Part shown: piece after piece, positions 25,487 to 58,100 of the stretch
Position numbering within the stretch: the stretch's first letter is position 1
Layout of the letters: every line of letters begins with the position of its first letter
DNA from: Alphaproteobacteria bacterium
GTDB taxonomy: Bacteria > Pseudomonadota > Alphaproteobacteria > Rs-D84
NCBI GenBank assembly: GCA_017475605.1
Contig: JAFVFD010000002.1
Location: 11,769 to 75,768, forward strand
Length of the DNA stretch: 64,000 nt
Direction: 5' to 3'
Made by a program: the position numbers and the translations under genes
Notes under the pieces: generated by a model
The model's input: only the letters and a program-made list of their open reading frames with translations
Told to the model about the DNA's origin: nothing
Databases searched by the model: none

Positions 25487-28345
25487 TTGAAACGCATGGT
25501 TTTAGGGCTTTTTGCGTGTTTGTTTGGTGTGTTCGTCGTGAACGTGGCGATGGCTGCGTGTACAGAAAATGAAATTGATGTAACCGGTACCGGCAGTCAA
25601 TGTGAAACAGTAAAATTTACCCTGACAACAACGGAATTGGCGGCAAACGGATCATTAAATATATGGATGTCTGCCAAGGGAACATTCTATATTGATTGTG
25701 GGAAAAATGGTACGTTGTCTGGTGCCGGAACATCTGGTAAAACGCTTACAAAAACAACCAATTTGGTTTCAGAAGTGCAATGTAAATGGTCGTCCGCCGG
25801 TGTACACACGATTCGATTTGGTGGAACCGCGACGGAATATGCCAGTGTTGGTCTTGATGCATCTTCAACCAATGCGGCGATACAATTTGGTACCAGCACA
25901 AATCAGTCAAAAATAGCATCTGTGTCAGGTTCGTTGGGCGCAATGTTCCCGCAATTGGGATCGGCATCGAACCAAGTTCCAAGTTTTGCATCATTATTTG
26001 ATGGGGCCAGCAATTTAACATCTATACCATCGACATTGTTCAGTGGTTTAACCGGCAGTGCCAACGCAAGGTATATGTTTCATGAAACTTTTTCTGGTTG
26101 TACCAGTTTAACATCAATACCGGCGGGATTGTTTGCGGATATTACCACACCTGCCGAGCATATGTTTAATAAAACGTTTAATGGGGATACTAATTTATCT
26201 GGCTTTATACCATGGACTACATTTTCTGGATTGGTTGCAAATAACAGTCCAACCGTTTCAAATATGTGGGTTAATACATTCCAGGGCACCAATTTGGCTA
26301 CGGCTTGTCCAACGGGGTCAACCCAATATACAACCCAATACGAATCCAGTTGGAACAGCAAAATTTCATGTATTTGTGCCGGCGCATACTTTTTTGATGA
26401 TGCGCTGAACACATGCACCCCATGTCCAAATGGCTATGATTATGATACAACCAACGGCAAAACGGATGTAAGCCAGTGCCAAATACAGTGCGCAGCAGGA
26501 ACATATGTCGAAACCCCTGGTGTATATGGTTTTACAGTTCTGGAATATTTGGAAAGCCCCGGTGATGCGTACATTGATACGGGGTTCGTGCACAATTCAG
26601 ACAATATTCGGGGCGAAATTCGTGTTGGGGTATCTGAAAATATCGCGTCAAGCAAGAATTTTAATATAATTGGAAACCAAACAGCCAATGAGGGATATTC
26701 TGTGGGGTGGGCAGACAATCAGTTTAAAGTATGGGTTGTTACCACAGGTCAACGCTTAAGAGGTCCCGATCATCCATTGGTGGCAAATGGCGTGTATGAT
26801 ATTGCGTATGAATTTAAAAATGGTCGGCAATACCTGACAGATGGCAGTGATACAAGAGACATGGCACACGATGGTGGAATTGTGACAGACAAGCCTATAC
26901 ACTTGTTCGATAACGGTGTCCAAGAAATGTCTTATAATTTCAAGGGGCGTGTGTATTGGATACGGTTATATGAAAACAATGTGTTGGTGCATAATTTCCT
27001 GCCGGTGCGTCAAGATGGTACAGATCTGATAGGTATATTTGATACAGTAACAGGAAGCTTCTTTACCAACAGTAATGCCAATAGTCAAAGTGGATTTACA
27101 TATGGTGGCGATTTAAGCAACACATGTGTTGATTCTGGGCGTGGGTATTATGTTGGGCAATCTATAACCAATTTTGGTGATGTCGGCGAACGGATCCCGT
27201 GTCCGATTGGTAAGTATTCCAATAGTCTGCGAGGCACCAGTATCGCATCGTGCCAGAACTGTCAGGGCGCAACATACAACGATGTTACGGGTGCCGCCGA
27301 ATGTGCCGCATGTCCGGCCGGATATACCGATAATATAGACCCAGGTAAAATATCAAAAACACAATGCGAAACCACATGTCCAGGCGGAACGTATATGAGG
27401 TCTGATATGATTAATGGACATACAAAGTTAGAATATATTGTAGCGGAAGGCAAACAATGGATAAATACTAATATTAATGCATCATCATTGGTAAATCCAA
27501 TTATGAAATTGACAACGCAATATACCGCTGTTGAAAAAGGAAAACAAACCGGTGCGAAGAAAAACAATCTTGATTTCAAGGTGGGTATTTCTAATGGCAA
27601 TGTGTTCTTGTGCCAGGCCGGTGGGGCAAATACAGAAACAAAATTTGGTGCCGCTGACACCGCAAAACATACGTTTATATTGGATGCGGGTGCGGGAAAA
27701 TGTTCCCTGGACGACGAAATCAAAGACTTGGCTGTTGGCAATTTAACCGATGGACCCATTTCTATCGGGACGGTGAATAATCAATCTGGCAATGCTGGAA
27801 AACAAAAAATCTTTGCTTTTACTTTGATAAGCAACGGCGTAAAGTTACTGGACTTGATTCCAGTGCTTGATGCAAATGGCGTTGCAGGAATGTATGATGA
27901 GGCCCACGATCGATTTTACGCCAGTGCCGGATCCCAGCCGTTTGTTCAAGGGCCGCGATCAAATTCTAGTGGTTGTATTGATGTTGAACCGGGATATTGG
28001 GCGCCAGAAACTGTGTTAGGATATGGGGAAACAAGCGATCGTAATGAATGTCCGCTGGGAACAACAACGGTTGGATATGGCCATGGCGCAGACGAGGCAT
28101 CTGACTGTGGGCGTGTGTTATATATTGCCAATGGAAAGTTTTATGCGAAAACAATAAAGCCAACAACACCGGCACTAAACCTTATGACCAATGGGGGCGG
28201 TATATTTTACATCTGGGCCAGCCCAACAGACCATACATTATCCAACTTGCACCTGGGATCAATGGAAAATCAATATACGGTATATGATGACAGTTTGTTC
28301 TATGGTGAACGCGATTTTACGACGGACAATCGTATAAACAATTAA
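25487..28345 (+). CDS. Secreted cysteine-rich repeat protein (952 aa), member of the Cys-rich surface protein family
   Basis: Signal peptide LFACLFGVFVVNVAMA. Leucine-rich-repeat-like segment FSGLTGSANARYMF..FSGCTSLTSIPAGLF. Ephrin-receptor-like CxxCP.G.Y modules (CTPCPNGYDY, CQNCQGATYNDVTGAAECAACPAGY). The start may be TTG at 25487 or ATG at 25496. Confidence 0.7.
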   Translation: MKRMVLGLFACLFGVFVVNVAMAACTENEIDVTGTGSQCETVKFTLTTTELAANGSLNIWMSAKGTFYIDCGKNGTLSGAGTSGKTLTKTTNLVSEVQCKWSSAGVHTIRFGGTATEYASVGLDASSTNAAIQFGTSTNQSKIASVSGSLGAMFPQLGSASNQVPSFASLFDGASNLTSIPSTLFSGLTGSANARYMFHETFSGCTSLTSIPAGLFADITTPAEHMFNKTFNGDTNLSGFIPWTTFSGLVANNSPTVSNMWVNTFQGTNLATACPTGSTQYTTQYESSWNSKISCICAGAYFFDDALNTCTPCPNGYDYDTTNGKTDVSQCQIQCAAGTYVETPGVYGFTVLEYLESPGDAYIDTGFVHNSDNIRGEIRVGVSENIASSKNFNIIGNQTANEGYSVGWADNQFKVWVVTTGQRLRGPDHPLVANGVYDIAYEFKNGRQYLTDGSDTRDMAHDGGIVTDKPIHLFDNGVQEMSYNFKGRVYWIRLYENNVLVHNFLPVRQDGTDLIGIFDTVTGSFFTNSNANSQSGFTYGGDLSNTCVDSGRGYYVGQSITNFGDVGERIPCPIGKYSNSLRGTSIASCQNCQGATYNDVTGAAECAACPAGYTDNIDPGKISKTQCETTCPGGTYMRSDMINGHTKLEYIVAEGKQWINTNINASSLVNPIMKLTTQYTAVEKGKQTGAKKNNLDFKVGISNGNVFLCQAGGANTETKFGAADTAKHTFILDAGAGKCSLDDEIKDLAVGNLTDGPISIGTVNNQSGNAGKQKIFAFTLISNGVKLLDLIPVLDANGVAGMYDEAHDRFYASAGSQPFVQGPRSNSSGCIDVEPGYWAPETVLGYGETSDRNECPLGTTTVGYGHGADEASDCGRVLYIANGKFYAKTIKPTTPALNLMTNGGGIFYIWASPTDHTLSNLHLGSMENQYTVYDDSLFYGERDFTTDNRINN

Positions 28346-28369
28346 ATGATGGCACCTGTCAATTATTTC

Positions 28370-28398
28370 TTTACATTCCGATAATTTTCGTTAATAAT
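28370..28398 (+). promoter_or_regulatory. Candidate sigma-70 promoter for the lysS leader
   Basis: TTTACA, then a 17-nt spacer, then AATAAT. Lies ~35 nt upstream of the leader ORF. Confidence 0.35.
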
Positions 28399-28433
28399 CG
28401 GGACTGTGAAACACCAAAAGGCGATAAATAATT

Positions 28434-28517
28434 ATGAAATTAAACATAAAAAAATCTTTGTAATTGATGGTGCGACCAGAATAATGACGGACGCACCGCT
28501 TTGTGCGTCCGTTTTTT
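28434..28517 (+). promoter_or_regulatory. Putative leader-peptide transcription attenuator of lysS. It has a 9-codon Lys-rich leader ORF (MKLNIKKSL), then alternative antiterminator and terminator structures
   Basis: Leader ORF at 28434..28463 has 3 of 9 codons as AAA. GGTGCG (28469..28474) can pair with CGCACC (28492..28497). That pairing competes with the terminator stem GGACGCAC/GTGCGTCC (28489..28510), which is followed by GTTTTTT. Only ~30 nt separate the terminator from the lysS ATG, leaving no room for a separate promoter. Confidence 0.4.
28489..28517 (+). terminator. Intrinsic terminator 30 nt upstream of the lysS start (attenuator terminator)
   Basis: 8-bp GC-rich stem GGACGCAC-cgcttt-GTGCGTCC followed by GTTTTTT. 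Confidence 0.7.
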
Positions 28518-28547
28518 AATAACTAATCACAACCAGAAGGAACAACG

Positions 28548-30014
28548 ATGTCAGAAAACGCAACAATATCGACGAATGAATTACAGGCCCGTTTACAAAA
28601 GGCTGAAAATATCCGCGCGCGTGATGGTGTTGTATGGAAAGATACATTTGATCGTTCACATACAATTGCGGACGCGCGTAATTTGCCGGATGGAACCGCC
28701 GTTAAATTATGTGGACGTGTTACTGCGTTGCGTTGGTTGGGCAAATTGATGTTTGGCCGTATTTACGATATAAATGGCGAAATTCAGTTTTCTATGTCGC
28801 GTGAAGAAATTGGCGAAGAAGATTACAAGTTTATGAAGGCCAATGTTGATATGGGCGATTTTATTGGTGTTACCGGTGAATTATACCACACAACTGCGGG
28901 CGAATTGACTGTCAAGGTTTCGCACTATGATATTCTGTCCAAGGCATTGCGTCCGTTGCCGGAAAAGTTCCATGGCCTTACCGATACCGAGGCACGCTAT
29001 CGTCAACGTTATTTGGACGTAATTTCGAATCCTGAATCCCGTAACGCGTTGTTGGGCCGTTTCAAAATGACACAAAACTGGCGGCAATTTATGATTGATA
29101 ACGGCTTTTTGGAAATTGAAACACCAATTTTACAAAATGTTGCGTCTGGGGCGGCGGCAAAGCCTTTTACCACACACCATAACGCGTTGGACGCAGATTT
29201 TCAGTTGCGTATTTCGCCGGAATTGTTCTTGAAAATGGCAATTGGCGCGGGTTTTGACCGCGTGTTCGAAGTTGCAAAAGATTTCCGCAACGAAGGTATG
29301 GATGCGATGCACCTGCAAGAATTCACAATGGTTGAATGGTATGCGGCATATTGGGATTACAAGAAGAATATTGATTTTACATGGCGATTGATTCAACACC
29401 TGATTAAATCTGCACGTGGTACATTACAGATTTCATACCAGGGAACAGAATTAGATTTTTCAAAGTATGAAATGATGGATTACACCGCGAAAATGAATGA
29501 ATTGTTCGGATGTAATATTTTGGACTTTGATGATTTAGATGCGTTAAAGAAGCAACTGGTTGATTCCGGTATGTTCCCGGCCGAAGATTTGGAAAATCTT
29601 AATTCTATACCTGTATTGGTGGACTGGGTTTACAAACGCAAAATCCGCGACAGTATTGTTAAGCCAACATTCCTGTATAACTATCCAACATATATGGTAC
29701 CATTGGCGCGACACAGTGATGCCGATGACAGATGCCTTGATATGTTCCAATTGTTGGTATGCGGTGCCGAATTGTGCAAGGGGTATTCAGAATTGGTTAA
29801 CCCAATTCAGCAATTGGCGGCATTTGAACAACAGGCCAAAAACATTGCCAACGGCGATGAAGAAGCATTTAACCCAGATAACGACTTTGTGCGCGCGATG
29901 GAACATGGTTTCCCACCGATTTCCGGGGTTGGCCTTGGGGTTGACAGATTGGCCAGCATTATATTTGACCAGCCGACATTACGTGATGTCATATTGTTCC
30001 CAATGATGAAATAG
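28548..30014 (+). CDS. lysS: Lysyl-tRNA synthetase (class II)
   Basis: N-terminal OB anticodon-binding domain. Class II motifs: FRNEGMDAMHLQEFTMVEWY (motif 2) and GVGLGVDRL (motif 3). Confidence 0.95.
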   Translation: MSENATISTNELQARLQKAENIRARDGVVWKDTFDRSHTIADARNLPDGTAVKLCGRVTALRWLGKLMFGRIYDINGEIQFSMSREEIGEEDYKFMKANVDMGDFIGVTGELYHTTAGELTVKVSHYDILSKALRPLPEKFHGLTDTEARYRQRYLDVISNPESRNALLGRFKMTQNWRQFMIDNGFLEIETPILQNVASGAAAKPFTTHHNALDADFQLRISPELFLKMAIGAGFDRVFEVAKDFRNEGMDAMHLQEFTMVEWYAAYWDYKKNIDFTWRLIQHLIKSARGTLQISYQGTELDFSKYEMMDYTAKMNELFGCNILDFDDLDALKKQLVDSGMFPAEDLENLNSIPVLVDWVYKRKIRDSIVKPTFLYNYPTYMVPLARHSDADDRCLDMFQLLVCGAELCKGYSELVNPIQQLAAFEQQAKNIANGDEEAFNPDNDFVRAMEHGFPPISGVGLGVDRLASIIFDQPTLRDVILFPMMK

Positions 30015-30024
30015 GGCAATCAAG

Positions 30025-31422
30025 ATGATTTCTAAATCTGATACTTTTGCGGTTGATTTAACCGCAGATCACGACAGGAAAAACCTGGCCGATATTGAAC
30101 ACGCACTGGCCGAACACCGTATTAACGAAGAAGCGGCCGAATACCTGCGGTCCCTGTATTCCGACGGGATGGATTGGTTCCGTGAAGTGTTTCATGTCCT
30201 GGGTAAATGCCTTGGCGCGCCCAAGGCACCCGTTGTGCGTTATGATTATGAAAACGATTGTGGTGTTGATGAACAGATTAAAATATCTGATATTAACCCA
30301 TTGTCGCCATATCTTGTCCAGCATCGTTTGGACATGGACCCAATGCGTAATCAGTTCTTTACGGTTACCGCCGGACACCAGGTTGATTTGTCGGTGTCGT
30401 CTATTGTTACGGTTATTGTTGCTGCACAAAAACGCACAGAACGCGCACTGGAAAAAATTACGGGAAAATATTATCGGGACTATGTTAACGATGTTGCAAC
30501 AACCGCTGAACGCGTTATAACTGCGCACGAACGCGCGGCATCTGGGCGCGCAATCGCCGAAAAAATACGTGAAGAGTTTTCTGATAAGTTTATAACATCT
30601 GCACCAGAAACTGTATTAAAGATTATCGGTCGCGGCCACGAACAAATTGCCGTAGATTTAGTGCGCGAATTGGATAAAATTGAAAAGCCGCATTTAAGAT
30701 TGCAAGATGTTTGGCGCGTGAAGTGTTTGTTTGATTTGGTGCCCCAGGCGCGTACATTCATAGAACGCATCCGCGAAGCGATGCCGGAACGCATTATTTC
30801 CATGCGGGACAAGTTTTATGATATGGACAACCCACGTAATTATCGTGATGCCAAAATTATTTTGAATATTGGGCATGACGGCGGGCCGGTTATACCAATG
30901 GAAATTATATGCCAGGTGCGTACGTTCTTTGAATTTGAACGCATGACGCACATTCAATATGAACGCGCGCGCAAACGCAAAAACGCGGCCAGTGATAACA
31001 TAGAACGCAAATTGGCAGATTATATGGAAGATGGCATCAAAGAATACAACCTTATGATTTGTCGCTGTGTCGAGGCTTTGTTTGACCGCGTTGGGTGGAA
31101 TATTTTGTATGAACGCGGAATCGGCATGTCGCTTTTCGAAGGGTTCCCAAAGAATTGCACCTTGTATTATCCGCAAAAGATGTTGGATATCATTACCGAT
31201 AAATTGGATAACGCGATTGAAAACGAAGTGTTTCGCCTTACCACTTCGCCCGCGAAATTAACCCAGGCCCAAACAAGCGAAATCTTTCACTTTATGGCGC
31301 GGTTTATTTTGGTTGCGGCGATGCCATATCGTAAATCGGCATGGTCTGCGCCGACGAATACACCGGCGGGCAAATTATTTAATTTCGTTATGAAGGAAGT
31401 TCAACGTTATTACAAACAATAA
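30025..31422 (+). CDS. Orphan 465-aa protein whose central region carries a divergent RelA/SpoT-like (pol-beta-fold) nucleotidyltransferase signature. Possible alarmone-synthetase-like or toxSAS-like enzyme
   Basis: WRVKCLFDLVPQAR matches RVKS..yDllGiR. DKFYDMDNPRNYRDAKIIL matches DYIa.PK.nGYqSlH. GGPVIPMEIICQVRT matches E[IV]QIRT. FEFERMTHIQYE matches AE...H..YK. The N-terminal ~220 aa and C-terminal ~130 aa are unrecognised. A 10-nt gap follows lysS. Confidence 0.45.
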   Translation: MISKSDTFAVDLTADHDRKNLADIEHALAEHRINEEAAEYLRSLYSDGMDWFREVFHVLGKCLGAPKAPVVRYDYENDCGVDEQIKISDINPLSPYLVQHRLDMDPMRNQFFTVTAGHQVDLSVSSIVTVIVAAQKRTERALEKITGKYYRDYVNDVATTAERVITAHERAASGRAIAEKIREEFSDKFITSAPETVLKIIGRGHEQIAVDLVRELDKIEKPHLRLQDVWRVKCLFDLVPQARTFIERIREAMPERIISMRDKFYDMDNPRNYRDAKIILNIGHDGGPVIPMEIICQVRTFFEFERMTHIQYERARKRKNAASDNIERKLADYMEDGIKEYNLMICRCVEALFDRVGWNILYERGIGMSLFEGFPKNCTLYYPQKMLDIITDKLDNAIENEVFRLTTSPAKLTQAQTSEIFHFMARFILVAAMPYRKSAWSAPTNTPAGKLFNFVMKEVQRYYKQ

Positions 31423-39115: not shown

Positions 39116-39206
39116 GGAGACGTCGCATAGTTGGTCTAGTGCGCCACATTGGAAATGTGGTATACTCGCAAGGGTATCAAGGGTTCGAATCCCTTCGTCT
39201 CCGCCA
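39116..39206 (+). tRNA. tRNA-Ser (anticodon GGA)
   Basis: Acceptor GGAGACG/CGTCTCC. Anticodon stem CCACA/TGTGG with loop TTGGAAA. Long variable arm. T-arm AAGGG-TTCGAAT-CCCTT. CCA is encoded. Confidence 0.88.
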
Positions 39207-39239
39207 GAAAATTACCCCGCATTTGCGGGGTTAATTTTT

Positions 39240-39385
39240 GGCGGATATGTGAGGCAGATTTGAACCATTAGCAACGAATGTTGCTGGGTTCGAAAACAAG
39301 TAGATTTTGCAAGCGCAGCGTGGCGAAATCGTTACGGTTTGCCCGCAGGCACATTGTGCCGAGGGAATCCCTTCGTCTCCGCCAG
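39240..39385. repeat. Element A, copy 2
   Basis: It starts with TGGCGGA, an inverted tRNA-Ser 3' terminus. Then ..CAGATTTGAACC, the hairpin AGCAAC-gaat-GTTGCT, GGGTTCGAAAACAAGTAGATTTTG, a core, and the hairpin GGCACA-tt-GTGCC. It ends with GAGGGAATCCCTTCGTCTCCGCCAG, the tRNA-Ser 3' end. Both hairpins carry compensatory changes relative to copy 1. Confidence 0.75.
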
Positions 39386-39435
39386 AAAATTAAAATCTTA
39401 AAACGCCCCGTTCGGGGTGTTTTTGATTTTAACTG

Positions 39436-39583
39436 GCGTGGACGAAGGGATGGGTCAGAGCGAAGCGCATGACCAATACGCAGATGAACAATTACAAAAC
39501 CTGCAAAAACGGATATTTTTAATAGAGTTTTTGCGTTTAGGTTTTGTTTTTGTTTATCAAGGGGGGGGTATCGTCTCCGCCAG
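39436..39583. repeat. Element B, copy 2
   Basis: GGCGTGGACGAAGGGAT is the reverse complement of the tRNA-Ser 3' end, with 15 of 17 bases matching. Core GATGGGTCAGAGCGAAGCGCATGACCAATACGCAGATGAACAATTA. An AT-rich spacer follows, then TTGTTTATCAAGGGGGGG plus CGTCTCCGCCAG. Terminator copies lie at 39398..39426 and 39598..39625. Confidence 0.75.
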
Positions 39584-39688
39584 AAAATTAAAATCTTAAA
39601 ACACCCGTTCGGGGTGTTTTTTATTTAGGAGGGGGAGGAATTGATTGATTTTTTTATGGTTTTGTGATATAATATGTGCAACTAAACG

Positions 39689-41631: not shown

Positions 41632-41690
41632 TTGAAAACAATGAACATGATCTAATTATCAATATAAAGAAATACTTTGTCCTGCATCAT
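41632..41690. repeat. Direct repeat, right copy
   Basis: See the left copy at 41281..41335. Confidence 0.6.
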
Positions 41691-41719
41691 TTGGTGCAGG
41701 TTTTTTTATAAAAAAAGAG

Positions 41720-46387: not shown

Positions 46388-46415
46388 TTTCAATAAAAAG
46401 CCCCATCTTGCGATG
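46388..46415 (-). terminator. Terminator of giant gene 1 (minus strand)
   Basis: Reverse complement: GCCCCATCgcaaGATGGGGCttttt. Confidence 0.75.
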
Positions 46416-46431
46416 GGGCAGGCGGTTAGTG

Positions 46432-49400
46432 CTACCACGATATATATCCTGGATTACACGTCCGTTCGCACTTTTTGGTGGCATTGTTCCACCGCAGCGA
46501 ACCTGTTTCGTCTGAATATGGGCGATCACAAATTGGGACACATTCGTTGTTGTCCAAATTGTACTTTTCGCCTTGATACAGACATGATGCTATTTCGCAA
46601 CCGGTGCTGTAACTGGCCGCGGCAACTTCGCCCAGAACACTGAACTTGTTGCGACATGCGCTGCACTGTTCGGATGCGTTATTCTTTTCGTATGGGTCGT
46701 TCGTATAGCCCGGTACGCACGATGTCGCAATACATTCGTTCCATGAACCCGTTGCGGTGTTCCATGTCTTTGTACCAACACCGTTCGGGACGTTACACAC
46801 CTGTTCATTTTCAACACACGCGTTTGATGCCAGGTGGAACCCATCTTCACACGATTTTATCGTACAGATGCCGAATGCGCCATGTGCTGCATCCCACTTC
46901 TGTGTGGCAACTGTTGCGTTTGGTGCCACGTCTGTACAATCTTTGACATCTTCCTCACAAACACTGTTGTATGGATGGTAACCAATCACGCAGCTTTCAA
47001 TTATACAGTTTCCATCAGGTTTATAGGACAATGCGTTTTCACGATTGCATGGCTTACATGACCCATTGACCATTTCGTAGTTACTGATACACGCTGTTTC
47101 TATACAATGCCCGTCAACAACTTCTGCCGGGTTACCAGTCGCAGATGTACCAGTGTACTGACAATTGTTTGGCCAATAGGCGGTGGTTTCAACTGGGCTA
47201 AGGGTACAATTATCCTCAACATATCCAGTACACTTGCGGTAACAATCGCTTGCCTTGGTGGCCCCAGGGGCTGAATACATCCAACTGCCATCACCCAGGT
47301 CCGCGCAAGATTTCGCGCCGTTGCCACCTTCGCCGCCCGGTGTTCCATCACAGAAACTGCCCGCTGGACAAGTTACACATTGGCCATTGGACAGTGTATA
47401 ACCTGATGCACAAGATGTAATCGCACATGTGTCTGTGGCAGTATAATAATCATGGCCCGACATCGCATTTGCGTTTTCGCCCATTGTACAGTCGCGATAG
47501 CAATATGCCTTATCTATTGTTCCTGCTTCTGACTTTGGATACAACCCACCAGTCAGATATTCGCAGGTTTCTACTTCCTGTCCAGGTTCACATACACTGT
47601 TTTCTGGACATACGAAGCAGGCACGTTCGCTTTCGCTGGTTGCTGTACGTGTTGTTGTCCCCGCCGGACACGCATACCGCGCCAAATCGCGATCTGGGCT
47701 GTAATACGCATAGTCCGCCACAGAACATTCTATATCGGTCGCATTTGCCAACCAATAACCCGCATCGCAGTACAGCATAGTTGGGGTTCCGCAACCGGCC
47801 AGGTACGCATCATCCGCAACACTCCATTTACATGTGCGTTCGCCACCACCATGTTCCGCAACATACGGTTGTCCATTCTTCCAGCATTCAGATATCGTAC
47901 TGGTGTTGTTGTATGATGTCTTACCTTCGTTCGGACACGCATGACGTTCCAGTTCGTCTTCAATGCTGTAATAGTTGAAGTCTACGACAGTACATGCGAT
48001 ATCTGTTTGTGCCGCCAAATAATACCCACCACGACACTTTGTAATAACCTTGTCAAAGCAATCGCGTCCATAAACCGCACTATTTCCTGTGCCATTTGAA
48101 TACCAGCAACTTTGTGTCCCAGTACCCGACCCATCGGTCGCCGCATAGGCCAAATTCGCCTTGAAGCATTCCTGGACCGTTTCCGCGGTTGTGTTATCAG
48201 ACTTCGTTGTACCGCCATTCGGGCACGCATCACGTGTTAATATATTGTTCGCACTGTAATACCCGACACCGGCCGCTGAACAATCGGTGCCTGTTGTGGT
48301 TGCCAACCAATGACCCGCATCACAGGATGTTATTACAAAGTCTTTACATCTGTCGGAATAGGCCAGGGCTGTTTCGTTGTAATAACATGTTTGTGTACCG
48401 CGTCCATGTGTTGCAACATATGTTGGCAACAATTCTTTATAACATGCCGCACTGCTTTCCGAATTGGCAGGCGATTTACCATCGTCCGGACAGGGTTCAA
48501 TACCTGCCTGGCCAGAATTTGTAACGACGGTTACACCAGGGCAATAGTTGTTTGCCGTACATGGTAAACAGTCTGTTGTCGGATTTTCGCCGGCACCGCG
48601 ATAATATTTACCCACTGGACATGTAATAGGTGCATCGGTCCATTGTGCAGAAACCGTAGCATTGGATGTTGTAAATGTCAGTGCGGCCGTTGTTGTTACA
48701 AATTTGCCGTCCGCATCAACAACAGATACATTATTCCCTGTGTATCCAGCGAATGTCAACACACCCTTGACCGGTTTTGTGGTCAGTGTGGTAATTGCCG
48801 TTGTGGCGGCTGCATTTGAATACCAGCCGGTCGCATACTTCAAATACACCTTGGCCGGTGAACCAGCGGTTGTCGCACCATTGTGATTCAATGTGATTTC
48901 ATACACATTCGGTGTCCACTGGGCAAACAATTCAATATCAGATGCATCAGACGATATATTTGTCGTAACCGTAGTACCCGCGTTATAGCATGTGCCACCA
49001 CCATTCGCCGCGGTGCACCATTTGTTCGCGGTGCTGTACCCGGTGCGTGTATCCACAATCGCCGGTAATGCGCATGCGCCACTGTCGAATGTGCACTTTA
49101 CACTTGGTGCGGTTGAACCCGTACCACCATTTTTGTTAAGGGTAATGGTGTATTCGTGTGCATCGCATGTTGGTGCGGCGGTGTTGTTGTTTTTGACATC
49201 ATAACCGGTCTTGCACACTACATTGTATGAACAAGCATTATATGTTGTCGCGCTGTTACCATACACGATATTTTCCGCGGCGGATACAGTCTTGGAATTT
49301 GCGAAATCCGCAGGTGTTTTATCGCATTCGGTATAGCATGCGGTGTAACTTGCCGCGAATTCTGTTGAACCCGCCCAGCCCGCCGGACATTCCGTTTGGG

Positions 49401-52400
49401 TTGTTGCACCATCACCACTGTAATAACCGCTTGTTGTGCCGGAACACGCGAACGAACCGGCGACCCTGTAAAAGTATCCCGCGTTACAGGTCAAAGCATC
49501 GGCATCCATACAGTTATTATAATCACCACTAACTTCTGTGCCGTTGTAATAGCATGTGGCGAAACCTGTACCATTTGCCCAATTGTGATTTGGATAGCCG
49601 GTTGTTGCGGTATATGGATTATATGTTACATAACAAGTCTCAATACCACGATATTTTTGACCTTCAACCAGGGCGGCCTTGCCCGGGGTGCCATCTTTGT
49701 CGGTCGGACAGTCGTGGAATCCATCTGTATCGCACCACATATCTTCTGGGCAAACATTGGAACTATAGATACATTTGTTATAAGCATTTGTCGTTGTGTT
49801 ATAGGAAACATGTTGGCTTACCACATTAACGGTAGTTCCGTTCAGATTCTTGGTTGCTTTACATGTCAAATAACAATCTGTAATCGCTTTACCATTTGTC
49901 GCACTGCCAGTATTTGGTGTGTTGCTGACCACATCGCCAGATGTATCTGTACCCGCGGGGCACACATTTAATTTAGTAGATGTGGTATCTGTTATATTTG
50001 TTTCGTTCCAATTAGTCGGGGCAGGACTCCAATTGCCATCGCCAACCGCAACACAGTCCAGATTTTCATTTGTACTTGTTGCGCCGTCTAATTCATCATA
50101 GTATCCAGCATCACACTTGCGCATTGTATAACTGTTGCCGCAATTGATTGAATAGGTGTTGTTAACAGTGCTCCAATGGCAACGTTTTGTGCGACCACCA
50201 TGAGTTGTCTTTTCCCAAATGCCTTCGCGGACACAACCTTCTATCGAGCCACTTTCATCACCATCTGTGGATATCGTATTACGGGAATCATCAACATCGT
50301 ACACAGCTTCTGGACAGCGTGTGCGTGCGGTAAAGTTGGTCGCACTGTAATATTGATAACCAACCAAAGAACAGTCAGTTGTTGTTTTGGTTGTATCCAA
50401 CCACCAACCACTGTTACATGTCAATATTTCAATTGTATTACAGTCGGAATTATACTTGCCCGCACTGTAATGGCAAACCTGCTTACCCTTACCATGATCT
50501 GCGCTGTATTGTACTGTGGCAAAGCAGTCTGATTCTTCGTCTCTGCCATTGTCAGAACCAACACTTGGGGCAACATTGGAAAGCGCGGTGCCGTTCCAGG
50601 TTTGTGCCGGGGTATATGTTGTCCCCGCAACCGCAGTTGGACAGGCGTTTATAAAGTGATTCTGGCCATCGCGGTCTTCGTCGCTGTATGCGACACCACC
50701 CGGACACCATGACCCATTCGGACAAGACTTACATGCGTTGTCTGCATCATCAAAATATTGTCCCGCATTACATGTCTTGGTCTTTTTAGCAACCCAACTT
50801 GCTGTCAGGGTTGTTGTAGTTGTGGTATCGGTATAATTTACCAGTTTATTGGTCGCCACGATTTGACCGGTGCCATTTATCACAGCAACCTGGGTTCCGC
50901 CAATCGTTGCATCATAGCCAGAACAATTCTGTGAGCCCTTGGTTGGCAGCACGATGCTTGTTATCGCGTTTGTCGCGGCGGCATTTGAATACCAGCCTTT
51001 GCCATATTTCATATAGATTGGACCATCTGTACCACCGGTACCACCATCTTTTGCTAATATGAATGTATAGATGTTTGGTTCACATGTTGTACCAGATGTA
51101 TGATAGCCGGCAACGCATACTGGGTTTTGCCAGGTGCATGTTCCAAATGTACCACTTGTTGTAACGGTTTTGTTCGTTGGGTTGTATGCCGTTATGGTCC
51201 CGGCAAAACTGACCGTTTCCGCAACCGGCGCACGTGTACCAATTACTTCGCCATTGTCGGTAACATTCACCGATGAACAAGAGTTATAACATGCTGTCGG
51301 CAAAGCACTCTTTTCGCCTTCTGTTGTGGAATTGATGTGTCCAGGCAAAGCACTACATGGATAGCGCGCCATACTTACAGCGTCTTCTGTGTTATTTGTC
51401 GGGGCGGGGCTCCAATTGCCTTTACCCGCTGGTTCACAGGTAGAAGAATCTTCTGCAACGCGATAATAACCACCACTGCAGTATTTAATTTTTATAGATT
51501 CACAGTTCTTATACCCGGCACTTGAATCATCAACATAATTGCAAACCTGGTCGCCACCACCGGTTCCATTGGCCAAGGCCACACCTGTTCTTGTCGTTTT
51601 ACATGCGGTAACAGCAGAACTGCCCGCCGGTGATGTTACGGCCCCGCCAGATGTGTCTGTTGGGCAAGTCTTATGGCACCCGTCATCTGCCTTGTCTTTG
51701 TCTTCGTAGTCAACCTGGCCACCTGGGCAATAGAAGCCAGCAGGGCATTCTGCGTCAGAACCAGTTAACCCAGCGGTACATGTGAACAAGTTTGTTGACC
51801 AACGGGCATACAACGTGTCAAATACACCCGCGGTTGATGCGGTGCCGCCTTCGGCTGTGTCGGCAATACCAATGGTTGTTGCTACCGACAGATTACCAGA
51901 GGCATCGATTACTTGAACCCCACCTGTTTTTTCAGATACGGTATAGTAGCCCATAAATGTGTGATTTTCCCATGTCGGCGGTGTAATCTTGGTTACCGTT
52001 GTGCCAAAGTTAGTCAAAGACCACCCAATTGAATATTTTTCATATATGGTCTTGTTTGTGCCCGGCGCACCGTTAAGGTCAAGTGTTATTGTGTACACCT
52101 TGGGATCACATGTACCCGCTGTTGCGTTTTTATCATAATTGCCCATGCAGGTATATGTCATGGCACAACTTGACGGCATCGCGGTACATCCGCATAACAC
52201 ACCGTCTATATTATTACAAGTGCCATCGCAATAATAGTCTGCACCACTTGTTTTTGCGTTTTCATTTTGGGTGCATGTCTTATTGTTGGCTGGGCATACT
52301 TGCGGTGTACAATACAAAGAGCATGTTGTATAGCATGTTCCACACGCACCACCTGTGTTGCCAAGTATCGACTGATTGTAGCCGGTTGTACTACAAGATT

Positions 52401-54987
52401 CGCATGTTCTTGTTTCTGTATTTTCGAAATATCTGTTCTTACACCAAACTTGTTTAAGTTGGCATGCAGTATTGTTTACATTAGTACATGCAGAACTTCC
52501 ATAATCTGAAATACCAGCAACCTTGTTTTCTGTATCATAAGAACAATTTGTTGAGTTTGTTGGGCATGTGCTTGGTTCAACACAAGTTGCGGTGTTACAT
52601 GTTTTATAGCAGCCCGCAGATGTTGTCGATGCCGCATCAGACTTGGTATATTCCGATCCCAATGTTGTACAGGCAACAAAGCATCCCGCGCTACCTTCAA
52701 TAGCAGTTCCGGTGCCCGGACAGTATTTACCGTCGGTTGGGCAATCTACGTGTTGTTCGCCATCGTAGTATTTACCAGCCTGACATTGAACGGTATTTTG
52801 AGACCAATGTGCATATAGTGTTGTATTGGTGGTCTTATCCCAAAGACGCAAAGAAACACCACTTGCGGAATAATATTGTGTTCCGCCTGTTTGTGCATCA
52901 AAATACCCGGCAAAAGACCATGTGGCGCGTGTCGGCAATTCAGAAGCAGACAAGGCCGGCAGATGCGCATCGTATGTCGCCGTAACTGATGATTTACAGC
53001 CCGTTCCACACGTGCCTTCATTTGCGTTCAGTGTAACTTGATATTCTAATGGTTCGCAATATGTGCCATCATCACTTACTTTATATCCTTCTGTACAAGA
53101 GAATGGTTCGTCATCGCCCGGACAGGTGGCATGTGGAACGCATGCGTTACAACCGTTGCCGGACAGATAATAATTTTCAGCACACGCAGTTGCCGCGCAA
53201 TTGTTTTCCCCATTTTTATGATAAATGCCAGATACCGTCTTTGAACCCGCAACATCGGATACCTTACATTCACGATAACAATAATTCGAATCGGTTGTTC
53301 CCTGGACTGAATAAGGGAATGTCGAATTAGATGCCGAACATAATGTACAATTTGTCGCGGTCGTAGATGCAAAGTAATTAGCGGCAGCCACAACCGGCGC
53401 AACAACCGTTTTGTTACATGTGTTTGTGTTTGTTTCACAGCCGCTCTTTATGGTGCCATCGGCGGTACCTGTCGCGTTCGAATATGCGACATAATCGCAT
53501 GTCGCCGGTGTACAATCTTGGAATGTGGCAGAAACGCAACCGTTTGGTAATGTTTCAATATGTGCGCCACTTGATGTACGCTGTTTGGTCTCGCTGAAAC
53601 ATTGGGTGATGGCGGTCGATGTCGTGCTTTCTGTGTGTGGGTATGCCGTAGGGCATGTTTCGCATGCCGCATTCGCCTTGGCGGATGATGCCTTGTACTT
53701 GTTGTATCCGCATGCAGTCCACACCGCATAAACCGTTTTGTCAGTTGTTATTGTTATTGTATACGAACCAGTCGTCGCAGATGCAGATGTTGCCCAGCCA
53801 CCAAATACATAGCCCGCACGATAGAACGAGTTTGTATCACCACTGGCCAGTGTACATTCAACCCCGGATGCACATTGTTTGTTTGCTGGTTTTGTCCCAT
53901 CACCACCATTCAGGTTATATGTTACAGTGAACGTATCTTGGGAATAATTGCCGGTAAATGTAACTGTGCCGGAATACACCCCAAGGTTTTCATAGGTACA
54001 CGCAATACCGGTTTGTCCACTGCCGAATGATTTAGTAACCAAAGTACTTGGAACCCATGATCCAAATGACCAATTGTCAACAGTTGGTGCGGTTGCCGCA
54101 TTAAATGTTTCGCCATATGTACATGACGCAGGGGTTGTTGGTGCAGTACCTTTTGTTGGTGCCCAAACAAAGTTAATCGTGTTTGGTGTCGCGGTACATG
54201 TATATGATGTCGCACCTGCGGTTGAATTGGTTTGTGTGGTATTTGTGGTATAGCCTTGGTCGGCTTCTACACTATACACACACTTGTTGTCGTTTGAAGT
54301 TGTGGATGCGGTACAGGTCTTTACCCCCGTACCCTTGGTGGCAAGACACGCACTACATGCATACGGTGCAGACCCTGTGCGAACATATTTTGAACTACAT
54401 GTTTTAATCGTACAAAGGTTAGTTATAATATTGTTGTTCCAGGCCGTTGTTTCCCAGTTTGCGACATTAGACGCATTGGCGCAGTTTGCATCGCAACTGG
54501 TCTTGCCGGTACCACTGGTGGTTTTGCCTGCGGCACACGCGGTACAGGATGTGTTGCCGGTACCGGTATTGTATGAACCTGTGGCACACGCAATACACGC
54601 ACTTTCGGCACTGCTGCCGGTGCTGGCATTGTATGTTCCGGCGGAACATGCTGTGCGACCACCAACATCATCATAATGTACAGTAACTCCGCCCGGACAA
54701 TATCCGCCGGCGGTACAGGTCGTTTCGCCCGCACCAGCGGTTGCTACATACTTACCGGCCGTTGTTGTTAAATAACAGTTGTTTATGCCACCTGTGGTAT
54801 TATCAGATGCACTGTTTGGATAGTTTGTTGGGCATTTTGCGCACTGACTGGACCCATCAAGGTAATAACCGGCATTACAGCTGATGTATGTTTTTTCGCA
54901 TGAATAGCCCTCGGCAAAAGAATTCGCCGAAAATGCGAACAGAAACAAACCAACGAAAAACCCGAGAAAACAGCGCTTTCTTCCCAT
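46432..54987 (-). CDS. Giant secreted cysteine-rich repeat protein 1 (~2850 aa). It has Listeria-Bacteroides (Flg_new) repeats, ephrin-receptor-like CxxCPxGxYC modules, a reiterated ~70-aa Cys module, and a ~500-aa C-terminal region shared with gene 2
   Basis: Signal peptide MGRKRCFLGFFVGLFLFAFSANSFA, with the start at 54987 preceded by AGAGAGGAAG. YTITLNKNGGTG...TGYSTANKWCT and YEITLNHNGATTAG...FAGY are Flg_new-like. Many modules of the type CLPCTANNYCPG and CKSCPNGSWCPGG. Repeated module CDAGYWL..C...YYS..R..CP.G. Confidence 0.85.
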   Translation of the reverse strand: MGRKRCFLGFFVGLFLFAFSANSFAEGYSCEKTYISCNAGYYLDGSSQCAKCPTNYPNSASDNTTGGINNCYLTTTAGKYVATAGAGETTCTAGGYCPGGVTVHYDDVGGRTACSAGTYNASTGSSAESACIACATGSYNTGTGNTSCTACAAGKTTSGTGKTSCDANCANASNVANWETTAWNNNIITNLCTIKTCSSKYVRTGSAPYACSACLATKGTGVKTCTASTTSNDNKCVYSVEADQGYTTNTTQTNSTAGATSYTCTATPNTINFVWAPTKGTAPTTPASCTYGETFNAATAPTVDNWSFGSWVPSTLVTKSFGSGQTGIACTYENLGVYSGTVTFTGNYSQDTFTVTYNLNGGDGTKPANKQCASGVECTLASGDTNSFYRAGYVFGGWATSASATTGSYTITITTDKTVYAVWTACGYNKYKASSAKANAACETCPTAYPHTESTTSTAITQCFSETKQRTSSGAHIETLPNGCVSATFQDCTPATCDYVAYSNATGTADGTIKSGCETNTNTCNKTVVAPVVAAANYFASTTATNCTLCSASNSTFPYSVQGTTDSNYCYRECKVSDVAGSKTVSGIYHKNGENNCAATACAENYYLSGNGCNACVPHATCPGDDEPFSCTEGYKVSDDGTYCEPLEYQVTLNANEGTCGTGCKSSVTATYDAHLPALSASELPTRATWSFAGYFDAQTGGTQYYSASGVSLRLWDKTTNTTLYAHWSQNTVQCQAGKYYDGEQHVDCPTDGKYCPGTGTAIEGSAGCFVACTTLGSEYTKSDAASTTSAGCYKTCNTATCVEPSTCPTNSTNCSYDTENKVAGISDYGSSACTNVNNTACQLKQVWCKNRYFENTETRTCESCSTTGYNQSILGNTGGACGTCYTTCSLYCTPQVCPANNKTCTQNENAKTSGADYYCDGTCNNIDGVLCGCTAMPSSCAMTYTCMGNYDKNATAGTCDPKVYTITLDLNGAPGTNKTIYEKYSIGWSLTNFGTTVTKITPPTWENHTFMGYYTVSEKTGGVQVIDASGNLSVATTIGIADTAEGGTASTAGVFDTLYARWSTNLFTCTAGLTGSDAECPAGFYCPGGQVDYEDKDKADDGCHKTCPTDTSGGAVTSPAGSSAVTACKTTRTGVALANGTGGGDQVCNYVDDSSAGYKNCESIKIKYCSGGYYRVAEDSSTCEPAGKGNWSPAPTNNTEDAVSMARYPCSALPGHINSTTEGEKSALPTACYNSCSSVNVTDNGEVIGTRAPVAETVSFAGTITAYNPTNKTVTTSGTFGTCTWQNPVCVAGYHTSGTTCEPNIYTFILAKDGGTGGTDGPIYMKYGKGWYSNAAATNAITSIVLPTKGSQNCSGYDATIGGTQVAVINGTGQIVATNKLVNYTDTTTTTTLTASWVAKKTKTCNAGQYFDDADNACKSCPNGSWCPGGVAYSDEDRDGQNHFINACPTAVAGTTYTPAQTWNGTALSNVAPSVGSDNGRDEESDCFATVQYSADHGKGKQVCHYSAGKYNSDCNTIEILTCNSGWWLDTTKTTTDCSLVGYQYYSATNFTARTRCPEAVYDVDDSRNTISTDGDESGSIEGCVREGIWEKTTHGGRTKRCHWSTVNNTYSINCGNSYTMRKCDAGYYDELDGATSTNENLDCVAVGDGNWSPAPTNWNETNITDTTSTKLNVCPAGTDTSGDVVSNTPNTGSATNGKAITDCYLTCKATKNLNGTTVNVVSQHVSYNTTTNAYNKCIYSSNVCPEDMWCDTDGFHDCPTDKDGTPGKAALVEGQKYRGIETCYVTYNPYTATTGYPNHNWANGTGFATCYYNGTEVSGDYNNCMDADALTCNAGYFYRVAGSFACSGTTSGYYSGDGATTQTECPAGWAGSTEFAASYTACYTECDKTPADFANSKTVSAAENIVYGNSATTYNACSYNVVCKTGYDVKNNNTAAPTCDAHEYTITLNKNGGTGSTAPSVKCTFDSGACALPAIVDTRTGYSTANKWCTAANGGGTCYNAGTTVTTNISSDASDIELFAQWTPNVYEITLNHNGATTAGSPAKVYLKYATGWYSNAAATTAITTLTTKPVKGVLTFAGYTGNNVSVVDADGKFVTTTAALTFTTSNATVSAQWTDAPITCPVGKYYRGAGENPTTDCLPCTANNYCPGVTVVTNSGQAGIEPCPDDGKSPANSESSAACYKELLPTYVATHGRGTQTCYYNETALAYSDRCKDFVITSCDAGHWLATTTGTDCSAAGVGYYSANNILTRDACPNGGTTKSDNTTAETVQECFKANLAYAATDGSGTGTQSCWYSNGTGNSAVYGRDCFDKVITKCRGGYYLAAQTDIACTVVDFNYYSIEDELERHACPNEGKTSYNNTSTISECWKNGQPYVAEHGGGERTCKWSVADDAYLAGCGTPTMLYCDAGYWLANATDIECSVADYAYYSPDRDLARYACPAGTTTRTATSESERACFVCPENSVCEPGQEVETCEYLTGGLYPKSEAGTIDKAYCYRDCTMGENANAMSGHDYYTATDTCAITSCASGYTLSNGQCVTCPAGSFCDGTPGGEGGNGAKSCADLGDGSWMYSAPGATKASDCYRKCTGYVEDNCTLSPVETTAYWPNNCQYTGTSATGNPAEVVDGHCIETACISNYEMVNGSCKPCNRENALSYKPDGNCIIESCVIGYHPYNSVCEEDVKDCTDVAPNATVATQKWDAAHGAFGICTIKSCEDGFHLASNACVENEQVCNVPNGVGTKTWNTATGSWNECIATSCVPGYTNDPYEKNNASEQCSACRNKFSVLGEVAAASYSTGCEIASCLYQGEKYNLDNNECVPICDRPYSDETGSLRWNNATKKCERTCNPGYISW
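48660..49290. repeat. Near-identical intragenic repeat, copy 1 of 3 (Flg_new pair unit). The other copies are at ~57320..57960 and ~59700..60250
   Basis: The ORF track shows identical spurious peptides (MPPPFAAVHHLFAVLYPVRVSTIAGNAH..., MIQCDFIHIRCPLGKQF...) at all three places. A DNA comparison by eye shows only scattered mismatches over ~500 bp. Boundaries are approximate. Confidence 0.8.
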
Positions 54988-55061
54988 AACTTCCTCTCTT
55001 TTATATTTCATGGTAGAAAAAATATATGGGGTAGTGCAAGAATAAAATTAACAAAATATAA

Positions 55062-55103: not shown

Positions 55104-58100
55104 TTACCACGATATATATCCTGGATTACATGTCCGTTCACACTTTTTGGTGGCATTGTTCCACCGCAGCGAACCTGTTTCGTCTGAATATGGTTTGGCA
55201 CAAATTGGGACACATTCATTATTTTCCAAATTGTACTTTTCGCCTTGATACAGACATGATGCTATTTCGCAACCGGTGCTGTAACTGGCCGCGGCAACTT
55301 CGCCCAGAACACTGAACTTGTTGCGGCATGCGCTGCACTGTTCGGATGCGTTGTTCTTTTCATACGGGTCGTTCGTATAGCCCGGCACGCACGATGTCGC
55401 GACGCATTCGTTCCATGAATTTGTTGTGGCATTCCATGTCTTTGTACCAACACCATGTTCAATGTCGCATGCTTGTTCGTTTTCAACACATGCGTTTGAC
55501 GCCAGGTGGAACCCATCTTCACACGATTTTATCGTACAGATGCCGAATGCGCCATGGGTCGCATCCCATTTCTGAGTCGCCGCGGTTGCGTGTGGTGCGG
55601 CGCAGCCTTTGACATCTTGTTCACAAGTGTTGTTGTATGGGTGATATCCGATTGTACAACTTTCAATCACGCAATTTCCGTCTGATTTATAGGACAGGGC
55701 ATTTTCACGATTACATGGCTTACACGACCCATTAATCATTTCATAATGGCTGTTACATGATGTTTCAACGCAACGTCCGTCAACAACTTCCGCTGGGTTA
55801 CCGGTTGCAGATGCACCAGTGTACTGACAATTGTTCGGCCAATAAGCAGTATTTTCAACCGGTGTTAATGTACATGTGTCTTCAATATATTCTGTACACA
55901 TACGGTAACAATCGCTTGCCTTATTAGCACCTGGGGCTGAATACATCCAACTGCCATCACCCAGGTCCGCGCAAGATTTTGCGCCGTTGCCACCATCGCC
56001 ACCCGGTGTTCCATCACAGAAACTGCCCGCGGGACAGGTTACACATTGACCGTTGGATAAACTGTAACCCGGTGCGCACGATGCAATTTGGCATGTGTCC
56101 GCGGCGGTATAGAAATCGCGTCCAGACATGGTGTTTGCGTTTTCGCCCATTGTACAGTCGCGATAGCAATATGCGGCATCAGTTGTTCCGGCATCTGATT
56201 TTGTAAATTGTCCACCGGTTAGACTATCACACGTTGCCACCTCTAATCCTGGTTCACATACACTGTTTTCTGGGCAAATAAAGCATGCGCGTTCATTTTC
56301 ACTGGTTTGTGTGCGTGTTGTAGAACCCGCCGGACACGCATACCGCGCCAAATCGCGATCTGGACTGTAATACGCATAGTCCGCCACAGAACATTCTGTA
56401 TCTGTTCCGTTCGCCAACCAATAACCGCCGTTACAATATGTCATTGTCGGAACACCGCAACCGGCCAGATAGGCATTATCCGCAACACTCCACTTACATG
56501 TGCGTTCACCACCACCATGTTCCGCAACATACGGCTGACCGTTCTTCCAGCATTCAGATATCGTACTTGTGTTATTGTATGATGTCTTACCTTCGTTCGG
56601 ACACGCATGACGTTCAAGTTCGTCTTCAATGCTGTAATAGTTGAAGTCTACGACAGTACACGCGATATCTGTTTGTGCCGCTAAATAATACCCACCACGA
56701 CACTTCGTAATAACCTTGTCAAAGCATTCGTGTTTATAGACGGCATCGTTTCCGGTACCACTTGAATACCAGCAACTTTGTGTCCCGGTACCCGAAGAAT
56801 CTGTTGCGGTATAATCAAGGTTTGTCTTAAAGCATTCGTCAACGGTTTCCGCGGTTGTGTTATCAGACTTTGTTGTACCGCCATTCGGGCACGCATCACG
56901 TGTTAATATGTTATTCGCGCTGTAATACCCGACACCGGCCTCCGAACAATCGGTGTCTGTTGTGGTTGCCAACCAATGACCCGCATCACAGGATGTTATT
57001 ACAAAGTCTTTACATCTGTCGGAATAGGTCAGGGCATTTTCATTGTAATAGCATGTTTGTGTACCACGACCATGTGTCGCAACATATGTTGGCAACAATT
57101 CTTGGAAACACATTGTCGCACTTGCGGTACCAACCAAAGACTTACCGTTGTCTGGGCATTCATCGATACCTGCCTGACCAGAGTTAGTCATTACGGTTAC
57201 ACCAGAACAATAGTTGTTTTCCGTACATGGCAGGCAGTCCGTTTCGGGCATTTCACCGGTGCCACGATAATATTTACCCGCCGGACATGTAATAGGCGCA
57301 TCGGACCATTGTGCCGTCAATGTGGCATCGGCCGTCGTAAATGTTAATATCGCGGATGTTGTGGCGAATTTACCATCAGAATCGATTACAAAAACATTGC
57401 TTGTATTCTTGTATCCGTCAAATTTTAATACACCCTTGACCGGTTTTGTGGCAAGTGCTGTAATTGCCGTTGTGGCGGCTGCATTAGAATACCAGCCGGT
57501 CGCATACTTCAAATACACCTTGGCCGGTGAACCAGCGGTTGTCGCACCATTGTGATTCAATGTGATTTCATACACATTCGGTGTCCACTGGGCAAACAAT
57601 TCAATATCAGATGCATCAGACGAAATATTCGTCGTAACCGTAGTACCCGCGTTATAACATGTACCACCACCATTCGCCGCGGTGCACCATTTGTTCGCGG
57701 TGCTGTACCCGGTGCGTGTATCAACAATCGCAGGTAATGCGCATGCGCCACTGTCGAATGTACATTTTACACTTGATGCGGTTGAACCCGTACCACCATT
57801 TTTGTTAAGGGTAATGGTGTATTCATGTGCATCGCATGTTGGTGCGGCGGTGTTGTTGTTTTTGACATCATAACCGGTCTTGCACACAACATTGTACGAA
57901 CATGCGTTATATGTTGTTGCACTGTTACCATATACGATGTTTTCTGCGGCGGATACAGTCTTGGAATTCGCGAAATCCGCGGTTGTTTTGTCGCATTCGG
58001 TATAGCATGCGGTGTAACTGCCGGCGTTAGCCGTTGAACCAGCGCAACCGGCCGGACAGGCAATTTGATAAGTAGAAGAGCCTGCCTGCGCGACGGTCGG

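Follow-up and report, generated by a model that had tools for sequence, protein, structure and literature searches.

How does RNA polymerase reach lysS, the gene for class II lysine--tRNA ligase (LysRS), when a strong intrinsic terminator stands directly in front of it? In the 64,000-nt stretch of DNA analysed here (the window), the T-run of this terminator ends at 28517 and the lysS start codon follows 30 nt later, at 28548, as an earlier note on this DNA had described. The same note proposed that the gene is controlled by attenuation in the manner of trp and his, with a lysine-rich mini-ORF preceding two mutually exclusive helices. All of our evidence is computational and comes from metagenome-assembled genomes. 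Based upon this evidence, we put the probability that the element is a ribosome-mediated (leader-peptide) transcription attenuator of lysS, sensing Lys-tRNA, at roughly 70%.

Elements of the leader and its distribution

Read from the sequence, positions 28370-28547 hold a promoter, a mini-ORF, an antiterminator and a terminator, in that order and all on the + strand, each at the position that had been assigned to it, and lysS begins directly after them. The sigma-70-type promoter (28370-28398) consists of TTTACA at 28370-28375 and AATAAT at 28393-28398, separated by a 17-nt spacer. It matches the consensus at 10 of 12 positions and is the best promoter-like site in a 1.1-kb scan of the region; the earlier note had located it to the nucleotide. 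The predicted transcription start is near 28405, ~28 nt upstream of the mini-ORF (28434-28463; ATG AAA TTA AAC ATA AAA AAA TCT TTG TAA), which encodes MKLNIKKSL followed by a stop codon. Three of its nine codons are AAA, again in agreement with the first description: K2 (28437-28439), K6 (28449-28451), which is invariant across relatives, and K7 (28452-28454).

Folding pairs the 5' arm of the antiterminator (GGTGCGaCC, 28469-28477), an imperfect upstream copy of the terminator 3' arm, with a 3' arm (GGaCGCACC, 28489-28497) that overlaps the terminator 5' arm. The complementarity of GGTGCG (28469-28474) to CGCACC (28492-28497), on which the attenuation proposal had been built, is exact, but the helix is longer than the 6 bp first described: it has 8 bp around a conserved A.A mismatch, with a folding energy of -12.3 kcal/mol. 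The terminator (28486-28517) has its 5' arm at 28486-28496, a CGCTTT loop at 28497-28502, its 3' arm at 28503-28513 and a run of six Ts at 28512-28517, and folds at -19.3 kcal/mol (z = -5.9 against shuffles).

The lysS gene (28548-30014, + strand) is preceded by a Shine-Dalgarno sequence, AAGGA, at 28537-28541. Upstream of lysS, the duplex with the anti-Shine-Dalgarno sequence averages -5.5 kcal/mol, and it is at or below -4 kcal/mol in 93% of loci. The product, and the putative target of regulation, is a class II lysine--tRNA ligase of 488 aa, identified by profile matches (NCBIfam NF001756, 516 bits; TIGR00499, 467 bits) and containing the Pfam tRNA-synt_2 and OB anticodon-binding domains. 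No Pfam or NCBIfam profile matched the flanking ORFs, 25487-28345 upstream (952 aa) and 30025-31422 downstream (465 aa); the latter has a homologue that also lies 3' of lysS in one related locus (L066).

Scanning one genome per species yielded 80 orthologous lysS loci, all from gut or rumen metagenome-assembled genomes labelled Candidatus Enterousia or uncultured Alphaproteobacteria (order Rs-D84). Their LysS proteins are 81-95% identical to that of the window, and in the homologue listing all LysS relatives were at least 82% identical. One locus (L017, CAVGNU010000014.1) was deposited as 'Bacteroides fragilis isolate H07647-L1_cleanbin_000047'; its lysS is of the Enterousia type (88% identical) and is preceded by the same leader, and this contig was probably mis-binned. 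Two loci that start at lysS (L029, L080) and one that is cut inside the upstream gene (L030) were excluded, leaving 77 informative loci. The leader is present in 73 of these, directly upstream of lysS in 71 and 1.6 kb upstream of it in the other two (L056, L066). Conservation of the mini-ORF and of the pairing in related genomes had been named beforehand as a check on the proposal; in addition to the layout in 73 of the 77 loci, we find the ORF in every one of 72 leaders. A MAFFT alignment of these 72 leaders has a mean column identity of 61%.

Four loci depart from this layout. L006 and L007 keep the homologous promoter but have no ORF, antiterminator or terminator (L006:3800-4003), and in them the promoter is fused directly to the lysS ribosome-binding site, which argues that this promoter drives lysS. 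In L016 and L068, the region ~200 nt upstream of lysS has a tRNA-Gly(GCC) followed only by the terminator, with neither ORF nor antiterminator. From their sequences, all four look like natural deletion variants.

Upstream of the mini-ORF, 52 of the 72 leaders have, in the equivalent place, a promoter-like site that matches the consensus at 9 or more of 12 positions, and in 7 others a tRNA-Gly lies directly upstream in its place. In these 7 loci the tRNA-Gly is 35-123 nt upstream of the mini-ORF and no promoter-like site was detected between the two, which suggests a tRNA-Gly-leader-lysS transcript.

The leader appears to be confined to this position. A covariance model built from it found a single copy in the 64-kb window, at 82.9 bits, with the next best match at 17.6 bits (E = 2.2); in 675 kb of related loci, it found one copy per locus, at this position only. 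When metagenome contigs were searched for leaders at other genes with the pattern GTGCGACC-N(6-30)-CGGRCGCAY, none of the at least 120 loci listed matched the covariance model, and the pattern matches among them are chance matches from unrelated environments. Likewise, no analogous attenuator on another gene was found in the window and the 80 loci. The window contains no other synthetase gene, and the other cases in which a gene follows a terminator were set aside as ordinary terminators with a promoter after them, as in front of a GMP-reductase-like gene.

In two loci the leader heads a longer operon. In L066 and L056, the same leader precedes the gene for a 522-aa class I lysine--tRNA ligase (lysK; NF001968, 781 bits), and class II lysS lies immediately 3' of lysK with no terminator between them. 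Thus, even where the operon includes a second LysRS of unrelated structure, the leader is still its first element. The tandem class I and class II genes under a single Lys leader span L066:2286-5467 and L056:2320-5464, and a tandem also occurs at L030:1-2938. Stand-alone class I lysK genes (L201-L205, 63-80% identical to L066 LysK) instead have plain promoters and no leader, so the leader is a feature of this lysS lineage and not of lysK generally. Most relatives have class II LysRS alone at this locus, and the mixture of classes looks like a LysRS class replacement in progress within an alphaproteobacterial lineage.

Two further features of the window lie away from lysS. Within 39116-39625, two more copies of the tRNA-Ser(GGA) 3' end (tccgccagaaaatta) lie downstream of the tRNA, near 39376 and 39575. 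Both copies are followed by the same hairpin terminator, and next come genes for a Mu F-like/YkuD-Tlde1 protein, a phage lysozyme and an impB/umuC-like polymerase; the repeats look like tandem attachment sites of integrated elements. On the - strand, two adjacent giant ORFs (46432-55011 and 55104-63800; 2859 and 2898 aa) are notable in a lineage with genomes of ~1 Mb.

The leader reading frame and the two competing helices

The attenuation proposal requires that the short ORF be a real reading frame. Our test looked for an ATG-initiated ORF of 7-12 codons that ends 0-10 nt before an invariant TGCG, with dinucleotide-preserving shuffles as the control. Such an ORF is present in 71 of the 72 leaders (72 of 72 if one TTG start is counted) versus 5.9% of shuffles, and the other frames of the 72 leaders contain none. 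The ORFs are 8-11 codons long across relatives, and their sequences are diverse: there are 63 distinct ORFs encoding 57 distinct peptides. After the initiator Met, the only residue that is invariant in all 63 is one Lys, encoded by AAA in 52 and by AAG in 11 and located 20-24 nt upstream of the invariant TGCG. The codon that follows this anchor Lys is Lys in 41, Arg in 19 and something else in 3, and synonymous codons vary for Arg (CGT/CGC), Leu (TTA/TTG) and Phe (TTT/TTC). Of all leader codons, 26% specify Lys, versus 5.0% of the 11,378 residues in the proteins of the window. Each leader has a mean of 2.5 Lys in ~10 codons (range 1-4), and two leaders have a single Lys in total. RNAalifold detected no conserved RNA structure in the ORF region, so coding is the simplest explanation of the conservation of the ORF.

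How a ribosome would start on this ORF is less apparent from the sequence. Pairing with the anti-Shine-Dalgarno sequence is not above chance at the mini-ORF (-3.5 kcal/mol, compared with -3.3 for shuffles and -5.5 for lysS). Because of this, we infer translation of the mini-ORF rather than read it from a ribosome-binding site. In 8 leaders, only 9-10 nt separate the -10 box from the ATG, which suggests that these may be near-leaderless in their translation.

The end of the ORF is under a constraint that a simple attenuation model leaves unexplained. It affects the two codons after K-K/R (28455-28460 in the window, and the homologous positions in the 72 leaders). The first of them has T as its third base in all 72 leaders. 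Where this codon encodes Ser it is always TCT, though the genome uses all six Ser codons. In the K-[K/R]-x motif, the codon that follows x always encodes Leu, Phe, Trp, Tyr, Cys or Met, that is, a hydrophobic or aromatic residue. This U-rich constraint, whether on nucleotides or on the peptide, is not explained by stalling at Lys codons.

The antiterminator is supported by covariation. In the 72-leader alignment, the TGCG of its 5' arm is invariant and the ACC nearly so, and the arms pair in 89.3% of cells, whereas sliding the 3' partner by 1-3 columns leaves 30-46% paired. Changes on both sides are seen at six of the 12 pairs, and the covariation observed was not reached in any of 500 shuffles. 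Most tellingly, pair 57-72, which lies outside the terminator stem, is C-G in 37 sequences, A-U in 10, G-C in 5 and another standard pair in 4; at pair 56-73, five sequences have C-G in place of U-A. The internal mismatch (columns 52 and 77) is never Watson-Crick in the 72 leaders, and its 3' base pairs within the terminator in 71 of them. The antiterminator is thus an upstream copy of the terminator 3' arm that carries a conserved defect, and this defect is consistent with an antiterminator that is kept weaker than the terminator.

The terminator itself is kept across the leaders, with T-runs of 4-8. Mean energies over the 72 leaders are -16.3 kcal/mol for the terminator and -13.1 kcal/mol for the antiterminator, and in 69 of the 72 the antiterminator is the minimum-free-energy fold of a transcript cut before the terminator 3' arm. 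RNAalifold found the terminator alone. A pause or anti-antiterminator helix (segment 1) was also sought, and none was positionally conserved: upstream partners for the antiterminator 5' arm were only weakly better than those in shuffles (mean z = -0.9) and had scattered positions. Some known attenuators lack such a helix.

These results bear on the idea that the same antiterminator/terminator pair is operated by a small-molecule riboswitch for lysine or a related ligand. In its favor, the genes under the leader are specific to lysine. However, there is no conserved structure beyond the two competing hairpins, the ~30 nt of poorly conserved 5' UTR and the unstructured ORF region leave no room for an aptamer, and conservation of a reading frame would go unaccounted for. 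Rfam searches agree with this. At gathering thresholds, the whole window yields three tRNAs and nothing else, and at E <= 10 the region 28300-28600 gives weak matches to unrelated small-RNA families, all far below gathering scores; at neither level does the leader match the Lysine riboswitch (L-box), a T-box or any other named leader family. We therefore regard a riboswitch as highly improbable.

Ribosome position and the input to the switch

If the ORF is translated, the spacing between its codons and the antiterminator determines what a ribosome can mask. In every leader, 2-9 nt separate the end of the stop codon from TGCG. In the window, the antiterminator 5' arm starts 6 nt after the stop codon of the mini-ORF, and K6 and K7 lie 15-20 nt upstream of the arm. 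A bacterial ribosome covers ~12-15 nt of mRNA downstream of the first P-site base. With this footprint, a ribosome that has the stop codon in its A site would therefore cover the first 2-6 bases of the antiterminator 5' arm, and one with K6 or K7 in its A site would end several bases short of the arm. Thus, the spacing of the stop and Lys codons predicts masking at the stop and none at the Lys codons.

We propose the following mechanism. Transcription would start ~28 nt upstream of the 9-codon ORF. The antiterminator (28469-28477 with 28489-28497) would form first and block the terminator (28486-28513 and the U-run), allowing polymerase to enter lysS. A ribosome that arrives at the stop codon (28461-28463) would cover the first bases of the antiterminator 5' arm with its leading edge; the terminator would then fold, and termination would yield a leader transcript of ~112 nt. 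When charged tRNA-Lys is scarce, the ribosome would wait at K6/K7, the antiterminator would remain free, and more LysRS mRNA would be made. In this three-segment design, the default with no ribosome at all should be read-through, unlike trp, which controls biosynthetic genes and defaults to termination when untranslated. The response to lysine, and the coupling of ribosome and polymerase in time on which it would depend, are what we infer from the arrangement of these parts.

A plainer account takes the terminator to be an ordinary one that ends upstream transcripts, from the 952-aa ORF here and from tRNA-Gly elsewhere, with lysS transcribed by constitutive read-through or from an unrecognised promoter; on this view, the short ORF would either encode a micro-peptide of its own or be non-coding sequence that is conserved. 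The order of tRNA-Gly, terminator and lysS in L016 and L068, with neither ORF nor antiterminator, fits this account, as do other terminators of the window. Strong terminators at 46400-46419 (- strand) and 41681-41700 (+ strand) are separated from the start of the next gene by only 20-45 nt, too little for a promoter, and have no leader ORF; they suggest that terminator read-through is common in this compact genome. A candidate for the unrecognised promoter also exists inside the leader, at 28458-28485, but it has only 9 of 12 matches, is not conserved, and is no better than chance, with 4 promoter-like sites found in the 1.1-kb region versus 3.3 expected. Moreover, the account has no place for a conserved promoter between the upstream gene and the leader, for an antiterminator that covaries independently of the terminator, for a stop codon that is always 2-9 nt from the antiterminator, or for a leader that moves with LysRS genes. 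We consider it quite improbable, although the terminator-only lysS loci and the close terminator-gene pairs of the window mean that read-through may be substantial regardless of the switch.

Most of the probability that lies outside lysine attenuation goes to the same RNA switch with a different input, which we judge unlikely. The switch would then be real, and its input would be general translation capacity or coupling, where any ribosome that reaches the stop causes termination, or a trans factor acting on the conserved GUGCGACC(A) segment, which LysRS, tRNA-Lys or another protein could bind. Several observations could be read in this way: the Shine-Dalgarno sequence of the mini-ORF is weak or absent, the Lys codons are few, the second conserved basic codon is Arg in 19 of the 63 distinct ORFs, the nucleotide-level constraints on the ORF are unexplained, and GUGCG-A-CCA superficially resembles a tRNA acceptor end. 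Yet the spacing between the invariant Lys and the switch is fixed, both Lys codons are used for it, and the residues around it vary freely. Also against a different input, the leader has no specifier or T-box-like element, no Rfam T-box match and a length of only ~110 nt. We also considered mimicry of a tRNA acceptor by GUGCGACCA and rejected it: its ACCA is not constant among leaders, where ACCG, GCC, ATCC and inserted forms are also seen, and the bases concerned change together with their partners in the antiterminator helix.

The preferred reading, attenuation by stalling at Lys codons, thus accounts for the parts that a ribosome-mediated attenuator is expected to have: a conserved short ORF, a modest enrichment of Lys codons (1-4), a terminator, a covarying and mutually exclusive antiterminator, and a geometry that allows masking. 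At the structural level, each prediction of the trp/his-style logic that could be compared across genomes is borne out in these sequences.

Other features of the leader could reflect additional functions. The K-[K/R]-x-hydrophobic tail, in which U-rich bases are invariant, may do more than fill space: as a nascent-peptide or termination-pause module, it could keep the ribosome positioned on the antiterminator. By analogy with rnTrpL and peTrpL, the terminated leader RNA or the peptide could act in trans. It is tempting to combine these features and view the element as the smallest natural ribosome-mediated attenuator, a three-segment switch with an 8-11-codon ORF that lacks a Shine-Dalgarno sequence or a leader, one invariant sense codon and a functional tail, but we think it unlikely that all of this holds together. 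If it did, the lysS switch would belong to a very small set of regulators that respond to amino acids in an obligate symbiont with a genome below 1 Mb.

Related systems and the place of the leader in Rs-D84

The textbook cases of leader-peptide attenuation concern Trp, His, Phe, Leu, Thr and Ile/Val. The leader of the E. coli trp operon (trpL) has its Trp codons four to five codons before the stop codon. It resembles the lysS leader in having regulatory codons 3-5 codons before the stop, two only, and in having a stop codon that adjoins the antiterminator 5' arm. Among synthetases, a close parallel is pheST of Escherichia coli and other gamma-proteobacteria, where a short ORF rich in cognate codons (pheM) and competing hairpins likewise precede a synthetase operon. 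pheM has a run of Phe codons, and pheST uses a four-segment design in which segment 1 pairs with segment 2. The lysS leader differs in its amino acid, in its 1-4 Lys codons and in having no detectable segment 1, and it shares no sequence similarity with pheST.

The earlier note had presented attenuation on a synthetase gene as a departure from known control of lysine genes. The logic fits, but its novelty was slightly overstated: the gamma-proteobacterial pheST attenuator is a precedent for classical attenuation of synthetase genes, and comparative genomics has predicted classical attenuators for trpS and leuS of Streptomyces (PMC1262725). The latter are also leader-peptide attenuators on synthetases outside the gamma-proteobacteria, and differ from the lysS element in phylum and amino acids. 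Within the Alphaproteobacteria, trpL of Sinorhizobium meliloti is reported to be leaderless (PMC10117765), and some Enterousia leaders are nearly leaderless in appearance.

For lysine, the known systems work differently. The class I lysK gene of Bacillus cereus is under T-box control (PMC2916919), which is likewise transcription attenuation of a LysRS gene in response to tRNA-Lys charging. However, a T-box senses uncharged tRNA via a specifier loop and a T-box bulge in a leader of >200 nt, and neither feature is found in the lysS leader. The L-box riboswitch (RF00168) also provides lysine-responsive terminator/antiterminator control, but it does so through a five-helix aptamer of ~180 nt that binds free lysine, typically at lysC or transporter genes, and the lysS leader has no match to it. 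The survey that predicted the Streptomyces attenuators gives no RNA element for lysine genes (PMC1262725), and our literature search on lysine and synthetase leader-peptide attenuators found neither a lysine-codon leader peptide nor a lysS attenuator. Control of LysRS has so far been ascribed to T-boxes or to no RNA element.

We therefore describe the leader as a candidate lysine-specific attenuator on LysRS in Rs-D84 alphaproteobacteria, with the structure that defines a ribosome-mediated attenuator. Members of this lineage have genomes below 1 Mb and no amino-acid biosynthesis (PMC12306168), so that a synthetase gene is a sensible target for lysine-responsive control, and one of few. The leader would provide a compact natural part of ~110 nt for control that responds to lysine or Lys-tRNA, and its covariance model is ready for use in annotating roughly 70 species-level genomes. 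The class I and class II enzymes found under one leader offer a handle on LysRS replacement in the Alphaproteobacteria. Finally, the lysS element would extend leader-peptide attenuation to lysine, and would also extend this mechanism to uncultured alphaproteobacteria of the gut and rumen with reduced genomes, the order Rs-D84.
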